A DNA stretch of 597 nucleotides, taken from Escherichia coli (GTDB taxonomy: Bacteria; Pseudomonadota; Gammaproteobacteria; Enterobacterales; Enterobacteriaceae). The position numbers were made by a program, and so were the translations under genes. The stretch lies in assembly GCF_003334255.1 (NCBI RefSeq), contig NZ_QOWU01000215.1; one strand, 5' to 3'. The notes under the pieces were generated by a model that was not told the origin of the DNA, ran no database searches, and saw only the letters and a program-made list of their open reading frames with translations. Positions 13-264 of the stretch are shown piece after piece (positions within the stretch are counted from its first letter, which is position 1; each line of letters opens with the position of its first letter).

Positions 13-264
13 ATGGGATACGGTTTACTGGATATTGCGAATCAGTCACGGCGTGAGGCATTACAGGGAATAAGTGACGCCGACAGGCGACGTGAAGAAA
101 TTGAGGCTGCTAACAAGCAGATGGCGGCGCAACAGAAAGCGCAGAACAAGCAGAATATCGGTACGGGCATTGGTACGGGGGCGGCTATGGGCGCTGCCGT
201 TGGTGGTCTCCCCGGTGCGGCTATTGGTGCTGTCATAGGTGGTCTTGCTGGCTCGTTGTTTTAA
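13..264 (+). CDS. Small glycine-zipper protein, 83 aa; predicted single C-terminal membrane helix with a charged N-terminal domain; function unknown (possibly phage or prophage encoded)
   Basis: ATG at 13 follows a strong SD and the ORF ends at TAA 262..264. The track translation ends in ...NIGTGIGTGAAMGAAVGGLPGAAIGAVIGGLAGSLF, with 12 Gly in the last 34 residues and Gly at i, i+4 from G52 to G80. The N-terminal half is rich in R/E/Q/A. Third-position codon usage is GC-biased and enterobacterial-like, consistent with real coding sequence. Confidence 0.8.
   Translation: MGYGLLDIANQSRREALQGISDADRRREEIEAANKQMAAQQKAQNKQNIGTGIGTGAAMGAAVGGLPGAAIGAVIGGLAGSLF

Follow-up and report, generated by a model that had tools for sequence, protein, structure and literature searches.

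The direct repeat that we followed up here is probably the coding image of a periodic peptide, rather than the scar of a duplication or a site of slippage. It lies in a stretch of 597 bases from Escherichia coli, hereafter called the window, and is the ordinary outcome of a protein motif that is periodic and belongs to a gene family with existing annotation. The octamer GGTACGGG occurs as a first exact copy at positions 160-167 and as a second exact copy at 172-179 (plus strand, as for all features below), with CATT between them, just as the first-pass annotation had read it. The same annotation was right in stating that the repeat encodes G-T-G-I-G-T-G at the start of a glycine zipper, in frame with the open reading frame at 13-264, and its grading of the repeat as minor is upheld.

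At its full extent the repeat covers positions 157-180 and consists of two 12-nt units, ATCGGTACGGGC and ATTGGTACGGGG. They read ATC GGT ACG GGC and ATT GGT ACG GGG, are identical at 10 of 12 nucleotides and code for IGTG IGTG (residues 49-56). This octet makes up the first two zipper turns directly after the charged N-terminal half of the protein, and G-T-G-I-G-T-G is its inner part. Residues 50 and 54 in this first octet are additional glycines, at positions where relatives carry Gly, Ala or Ser. The glycine zipper that begins with residues 49-56 belongs to a small protein encoded in the late operon of 933W-like Shiga-toxin podoviruses. Selection holds the IGTGIGTG peptide while synonymous sites drift, and the GGT and ACG codons are common to both units by chance, an event of about one in five given the peptide.

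Gene context and identity of the encoded protein

The window matches 186 phage records, all of them 933W-like short-tailed Shiga-toxin phages and their relatives (Sepvirinae), with a nucleotide identity of 97% to Escherichia phage PhiR12_3 and of 87.6% to 933W. Its counterpart in 933W (47455-48051) contains all 252 nt of L0132, flanked by the L0131 stop codon and the beginning of L0133. By alignment to 933W, the TAA stop of the upstream gene, the L0131 homologue, is located at 1-3 of the window (the end of L0131 at locus position 6003 corresponds to window position 3). A Shine-Dalgarno-like AAGGAGG at 2-8, four nucleotides 5' of the ATG at 13, is a putative ribosome-binding site. The open reading frame at 13-264, taken from the ORF list, comprises 83 codons and a stop, matches phrog_594 and Pfam Gly-zipper_YMGG, and represents the L0132 homologue. 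Another AAGGAG (263-268) precedes the downstream gene, the homologue of L0133 (phrog_601), which according to the 933W alignment and the PHROG match starts at 275 and runs off the window at 597.

The gene order L0130-L0131-L0132-L0133 is retained in loci of only 44-54% identity. In 933W the block around L0132 follows the tail fibre gene and precedes L0134, which codes for about 2,800 amino acids (L001 4898-12597; also L051-L061). The PHROGs of L0130 to L0134 (611, 596, 594, 601 and 616) are all listed as function-unknown, and none of the five has a structurally solved relative. When L0131, L0133 and the family profile were searched against PDB sequences, nothing significant came up, the top match being a tape measure protein with E = 0.25, and a PADLOC search for defence systems returned a chance-level match only. 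For phage vB_EcoP_phi367 (L002 776-1610) the annotation breaks the L0133 homologue up into several short ORFs, and the region matching the window is 610 nt long as compared to 597. A frameshift or indel in this record could be the cause.

Judged by its sequence, the window protein is a member of the 933W L0132 / PHROG 594 family, phage proteins of about 80 amino acids with no assigned function. Residues 1-83 align with positions 1-85 of the 85-position phrog_594 profile (E = 1.7e-42), and amino-acid identities of 92-100% are shared with many proteins of Stx phages and prophages. L0132 of 933W also has a length of 83 amino acids, occupies the same slot between the L0131 and L0133 homologues and is 92% identical.

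The protein consists of two halves: residues 1-48 form a charged N-terminal part, and residues 49-83 make up the glycine zipper at the C-terminal end. This zipper is matched by Pfam Gly-zipper_YMGG (PF13441) over residues 50-82 with an i-E of 2.2e-6. Within positions 166-252 the translation gives an unbroken ladder of eight Gly codons spaced four residues apart (G52, 56, 60, 64, 68, 72, 76 and 80). Residues 49-83 contain not a single charged residue and show the GxxxGxxxG pattern of a glycine zipper, defined as at least three small residues, mainly Gly, at i, i+4 and i+8 in a hydrophobic stretch. Glycine-zipper membrane motifs such as Gly-zipper_YMGG, Gly-zipper_Omp and Rick_17kDa_Anti, the '2TM' domain of SlyB/Pcp-type lipoproteins, likewise carry Gly at each fourth residue over about 30 uncharged residues. 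A further likeness is the GGP/GLPG break at the zipper centre, which could form a hairpin. Unlike the SlyB/Pcp-type lipoproteins, however, the window protein has no lipoprotein signal peptide or lipobox; it differs from glycine-zipper lipoproteins also in its charged N-terminal helix of 48 residues and in the location of its gene in a phage late operon. In NCBIfam, the 83-aa protein gave solely sub-threshold matches to glycine-zipper/OmpA lipoproteins.

RefSeq product names for L0132-type proteins are 'bacteriocin', which is widespread, 'YMGG-like glycine zipper-containing protein' and 'hypothetical protein'. The name 'bacteriocin' looks unfounded, as no defining feature supports it, and appears to rest on Gly-rich low-complexity similarity. 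We considered a class II bacteriocin with a double-glycine leader and rejected it: there is no leader, and the first GG (residues 64-65) lies within the zipper. The match to Pfam Bacteriocin_IIc (E = 0.0033) is not significant and is confined to the Gly-rich residues 47-80, the Pfam match to MccV is weak (E = 0.32), and none of the NCBIfam bacteriocin models matched at E <= 0.01. What the window protein has in common with class II bacteriocins and microcin V is a C-terminal region that is hydrophobic and rich in glycine. In the 6 kb that flank the gene on each side in 933W we found no gene for export (C39-ABC transporter) or immunity; the genes present there are those for a tail fibre, for lom and for function-unknown proteins of the structural module.

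Copy number and chance level of the repeat

Tandem Repeats Finder detected no array in the window, and an 8-mer repeated within 12 nt was present in 7% of dinucleotide-preserving shuffles of the window. Given the peptide IGTGIGTG, random synonymous recoding produced an in-register exact match of at least 8 nt at a rate of 19% with E. coli codon usage and of 24% with that of the window. Two of the four third positions agree between the units, which is a near-modal outcome (P for two or more matches about 0.42-0.50). Since this third-position agreement equals the expectation given the peptide, the nucleotide repeat holds no information beyond the amino-acid repeat. The peptide repeat IGTG-IGTG is itself mildly unusual at most. 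When the non-Gly residues of the zipper were shuffled with Gly fixed, an exact tandem 4-mer appeared in 4.9% of the shuffles, and at the exact site in 2.1%. Some exact tandem 4-mer is present in 9 of 84 family representatives, six of which fall outside the 933W clade.

It had been proposed in the first-pass annotation that the site may vary in length between homologues through slippage. Our homologue set comprised three 933W-type phage records and 58 IMG/VR loci, and the close family, defined by at least 77% amino-acid identity, contains 51 genes, which represent 20 different DNA sequences. Not one of the 51 deviates from two units, and neither IMG/VR nor the complete E. coli genomes yielded a copy-number variant, which contradicts this proposal. 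Codons 49, 50, 52, 53 and 56 vary synonymously only (ATC/ATT, GGT/GGC/GGA, GGC/GGA, ATT/ATC and GGG/GGT), and T55S is the sole amino-acid change in the octet. The in-register exact match is 8 nt long in 37 of these genes, 11 nt in 4 and 5 nt in 10, and two of four allele classes have lost the octamer. Over the whole gene, the window and the allele L006 differ by 16 synonymous and no non-synonymous codons, and therefore the protein is under strong purifying selection. Invariant length with divergent codons had been named beforehand as the result that refutes slippage. Because the alignment of the close family shows this pattern, present-day slippage is refuted.

Wider collections gave the same picture. 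A degenerate pattern for a one-copy allele had no match in IMG/VR, and the three-copy pattern was found on seven contigs there, all of them unrelated GIGT microsatellite-like stretches. The gene is carried by 385 of 5,426 complete E. coli genomes, at 437 places. The best alignment of a synthetic one-copy query to E. coli genomes covered 96 nt of a two-copy target with a 12-nt gap (87.5% identity), while a synthetic three-copy query aligned solely as two pieces, again over 96 nt. In the 33 clusters obtained from a search of 5.8 billion proteins, every in-frame sequence that reaches through the site has two units. The sole likeness to contingency loci and slippage-prone repeats is the presence of two adjacent 12-nt units in a coding region. 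Unlike such loci, the site has just two copies, and these are imperfect (10/12), recognized as no array by Tandem Repeats Finder and free of copy-number polymorphism.

We have weighed the view that the tandem 12-mers, or the G5 homopolymer at the 3' end of the second copy (176-180), mispair at present and yield length or frame variants as in a contingency locus, and we regard it as very improbable. The sole variant found at the site is the loss of one G from this run. It occurs in two database sequences, P0020 (L072) and P0025 (L073), each of which lacks one G and is frameshifted just after IGTGIGTG. The occurrence of G4 on different allele backgrounds would speak for active slippage, as would further frameshifted entries near the region (P0019, P0029 and P0030). 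On the other hand, no 12-nt copy-number variant turned up in any collection searched, both frameshifts are known from one entry each, L073 being a Logan contig of 1.9 kb, and in the L072 assembly the neighbouring genes are fragmented into pieces of 38 and 84 amino acids. A pattern of single frameshifted entries is typical of homopolymer sequencing error, and a five-G run is too short for classical phase variation. The G4 alleles are likely sequencing errors, since the L072 assembly has other fragmented genes. Even less weight, practically none, can be given to a function of the repeat as nucleic acid, be it by binding a protein or an RNA or by forming an RNA structure inside the coding sequence. 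Nothing but the repeat itself argues for such a role, whereas the L006-type and L042-type alleles break the 8-mer and keep the peptide. The octamer is thus unconserved as nucleotides across synonymous alleles, and this effectively refutes a DNA- or RNA-level element. An Rfam search returned no family match, and the RNA folding energy equals that of shuffles (z = 0.03).

Length variation of the zipper and the origin of the repeat

Length changes do occur elsewhere in the gene. P0007 (79 aa) lacks 12 nt, corresponding to one zipper unit, between the two GTTGGTG copies of the 933W-type allele, and P0006 (80 aa) is shorter by 9 nt there; both are natural variants of E. coli prophages. The GTTGGTG copies are 12 nt apart in the 933W-type allele (L001 6199-6225; window about 199-217), whereas the window allele repeats GGTG only. 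These deletions are events of the kind that the first-pass annotation had in mind, at a different site. P0017 (72 aa, L062) has a 33-nt deletion between the direct repeats GAACAA(A/G)CAGA, which removes QMAAQQKAQNK in frame. The window counterparts of these repeats are exact 10-nt copies of AACAAGCAGA at 112-121 and 145-154, 33 nt apart. The source of P0017 is a metagenome contig of 1.2x coverage, and the deletion may be an assembly error. An allele of 90 amino acids (L047-L050) has a 7-residue insertion ahead of the turn.

Apart from the octamer, a direct repeat with a spacing of 36 nt is visible at 178-209 and 214-245 (26 of 32 nt identical), coding for GAAMGAAVGGL and GAAIGAVIGGL. The two zipper arms of the window allele are thus alike over 11 residues, of which 8 are identical, 5 of them with identical codons; the 933W allele shows this resemblance less strongly. 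The likeness of the arms may stem from a larger internal duplication or from conversion. Differences from 933W are concentrated in the zipper's second half (GGLPGAAIGAVIGGL as compared to GGPVGAVAGAVIGGI; window 199-245, L001 6199-6245), where the window allele reads GGLPGAAIG and 933W GGPVGAVAG, while the N-terminal 56 residues are identical between the window protein and L0132. Such clustering suggests mosaic alleles.

A full HMMER scan of 1.84 billion representatives identified 86 proteins, and 84 sequences were aligned. Identity within this wider family is at about 40-50%. Most members have 76-97 amino acids and a common plan. The N-terminal part comprises 48 residues in 50 sequences and 47 in 21, and the second arm, which follows the conserved GP turn, has 16 residues in 57 of 84. 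For the first arm, the most frequent lengths are 15 residues (23 sequences), 19 (21, including the window and two close relatives) and 22 (12). In 52 of the 84 sequences the nearest relative, as judged by the other two parts, has another first-arm length, with differences from -14 to +14. At position 50 we found Gly in 55 and Ala in 12 sequences, at position 52 Gly in 70, at position 54 Gly in 43, Ala in 24 and Ser in 8, and at position 56 Gly in 83; further along the zipper, Gly is conserved at G68 (81/84), G72 (84/84) and G76 (79/84). The most extreme case of length is a distant homologue of 123 amino acids (L061 1501-1872) with a hugely expanded Gly/Ala-rich first arm (AGTAAGAGAAAGAGTAAAAGGAGAGAASGATAG...).

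The repeat had also been interpreted as the footprint of a small internal duplication. As a footprint this does not stand, since the synonymous sites agree at chance level; an old duplication, as suggested by the arm lengths, is another matter. One xGTG unit (12 nt) may have been doubled by replication slippage in the ancestor of the lineage with 19-residue arms, so that the zipper was lengthened by one helical turn and the synonymous sites were randomised since. We consider this unlikely, yet with an appreciable chance of being true. The two commonest first arms, 15 residues (23/84) and 19 (21/84), differ by exactly one 4-residue unit. The comparison of IGTG-IGTGAAIGASVGGPV in 933W with VGTGAAIGASVGGPW in P0057 shows one extra N-terminal unit, and VGSGAMIGASVGGPV in P0061 also resembles the 933W arm minus one N-terminal unit. 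The natural 12-nt deletion between the GTTGGTG repeats in P0007 shows that such events occur in the gene, and the exact peptide repeat has a p of about 0.02-0.05. However, there is no nucleotide signal, as the match at two of four synonymous sites equals expectation, and MAFFT sets its gap at query residues 59-62, further downstream by four to eight residues, although the position of an indel in a low-complexity repeat cannot be fixed. In many relatives this place is taken by an (xG)4 octet of equal length (IGTGAGIG, VGAGAGAG, IGSGAGLG), and for this reason the octet could be ancestral and its internal identity due to substitution. Distant members with 19-residue arms already have VGSA-IGTG or IGSS-VGTG, and the first-arm differences between nearest relatives are of many sizes and not mainly 4. 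A duplication origin keeps its share of probability because the peptide repeat is mildly unusual and a one-unit length difference maps plausibly here.

A bolder reading is that first-arm length, counted in GxxxG turns, is adaptively tuned in a widespread family of small podovirus proteins through repeat-mediated gain and loss of 12 nt, with IGTG-IGTG as one fixed example. We think this quite doubtful. If true, the tuned first arm might match the host envelope or the oligomer size of a genome-delivery membrane channel.

Predicted role of the protein and meaning for the family

The 35 uncharged C-terminal residues would insert in a membrane or form a helix-helix packing, and the conserved GGP/GLPG may bend them into a hairpin; the charged N-terminal helix of 48 residues would stay outside. 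A low-confidence AlphaFold2 model built on the alignment of 84 sequences gave one long helix and no hairpin at a pLDDT of 65, with values of 70-81 for the N-terminal helix. The conserved neighbours L0130, L0131, L0133 and L0134 are predicted protein partners, most likely in the virion or in envelope penetration, where the zipper would resemble those segments of tape measure proteins that carry glycine zippers. We tentatively predict that the protein works in the virion or takes part in the passage through the cell envelope during infection, and rate the chance of this at somewhat below even. The Pfam zipper match, the retained gene order and the zipper-like stretches of tape measure proteins speak for such a function.

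Continuous copies of GxxxG in tape measure proteins and in the T6SS effector Tde1 have been linked to membrane permeabilisation and translocation (PMC10240207), and such copies are a feature that the window protein has in common with them. The tape measure proteins P0035 and P0079 contain 6-8 stretches that match the zipper and give matches to phrog_594. This similarity is limited to the low-complexity zipper, so homology is uncertain. Moreover, unlike a tape measure protein, the window protein is a stand-alone protein of 83 amino acids, and it comes from a phage with a short tail and no tape measure protein. Our literature search on 933W with glycine zipper and ejection proteins yielded no paper on an L0132-type protein, and a mass-spectrometry paper on the virions of related EHEC phages makes no mention of one.

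In two database proteins, P0073 (442 aa) and P0075 (220 aa), the N-domain of phrog_594 is fused to a phrog_601-like (L0133-like) part. Both are single representatives with C-termini that look frameshifted, and we rejected them as Rosetta-stone evidence; the fusions are probably artefacts of deletion or read-through.

Overall, the octamer needs no mutational or regulatory explanation past the periodicity of the glycine zipper, and one candidate is thereby removed. Of modest side value are the features of the gene and family that became apparent around it. In-frame deletions mediated by repeats are real in this gene, at places other than the flagged site. The family, with proteins of about 80 amino acids, combines a fixed N-domain of 48 residues and a fixed second arm of 16 residues with a variable first arm, and its gene is located in a conserved four-gene block beside the gene for a protein of 2,800 amino acids.
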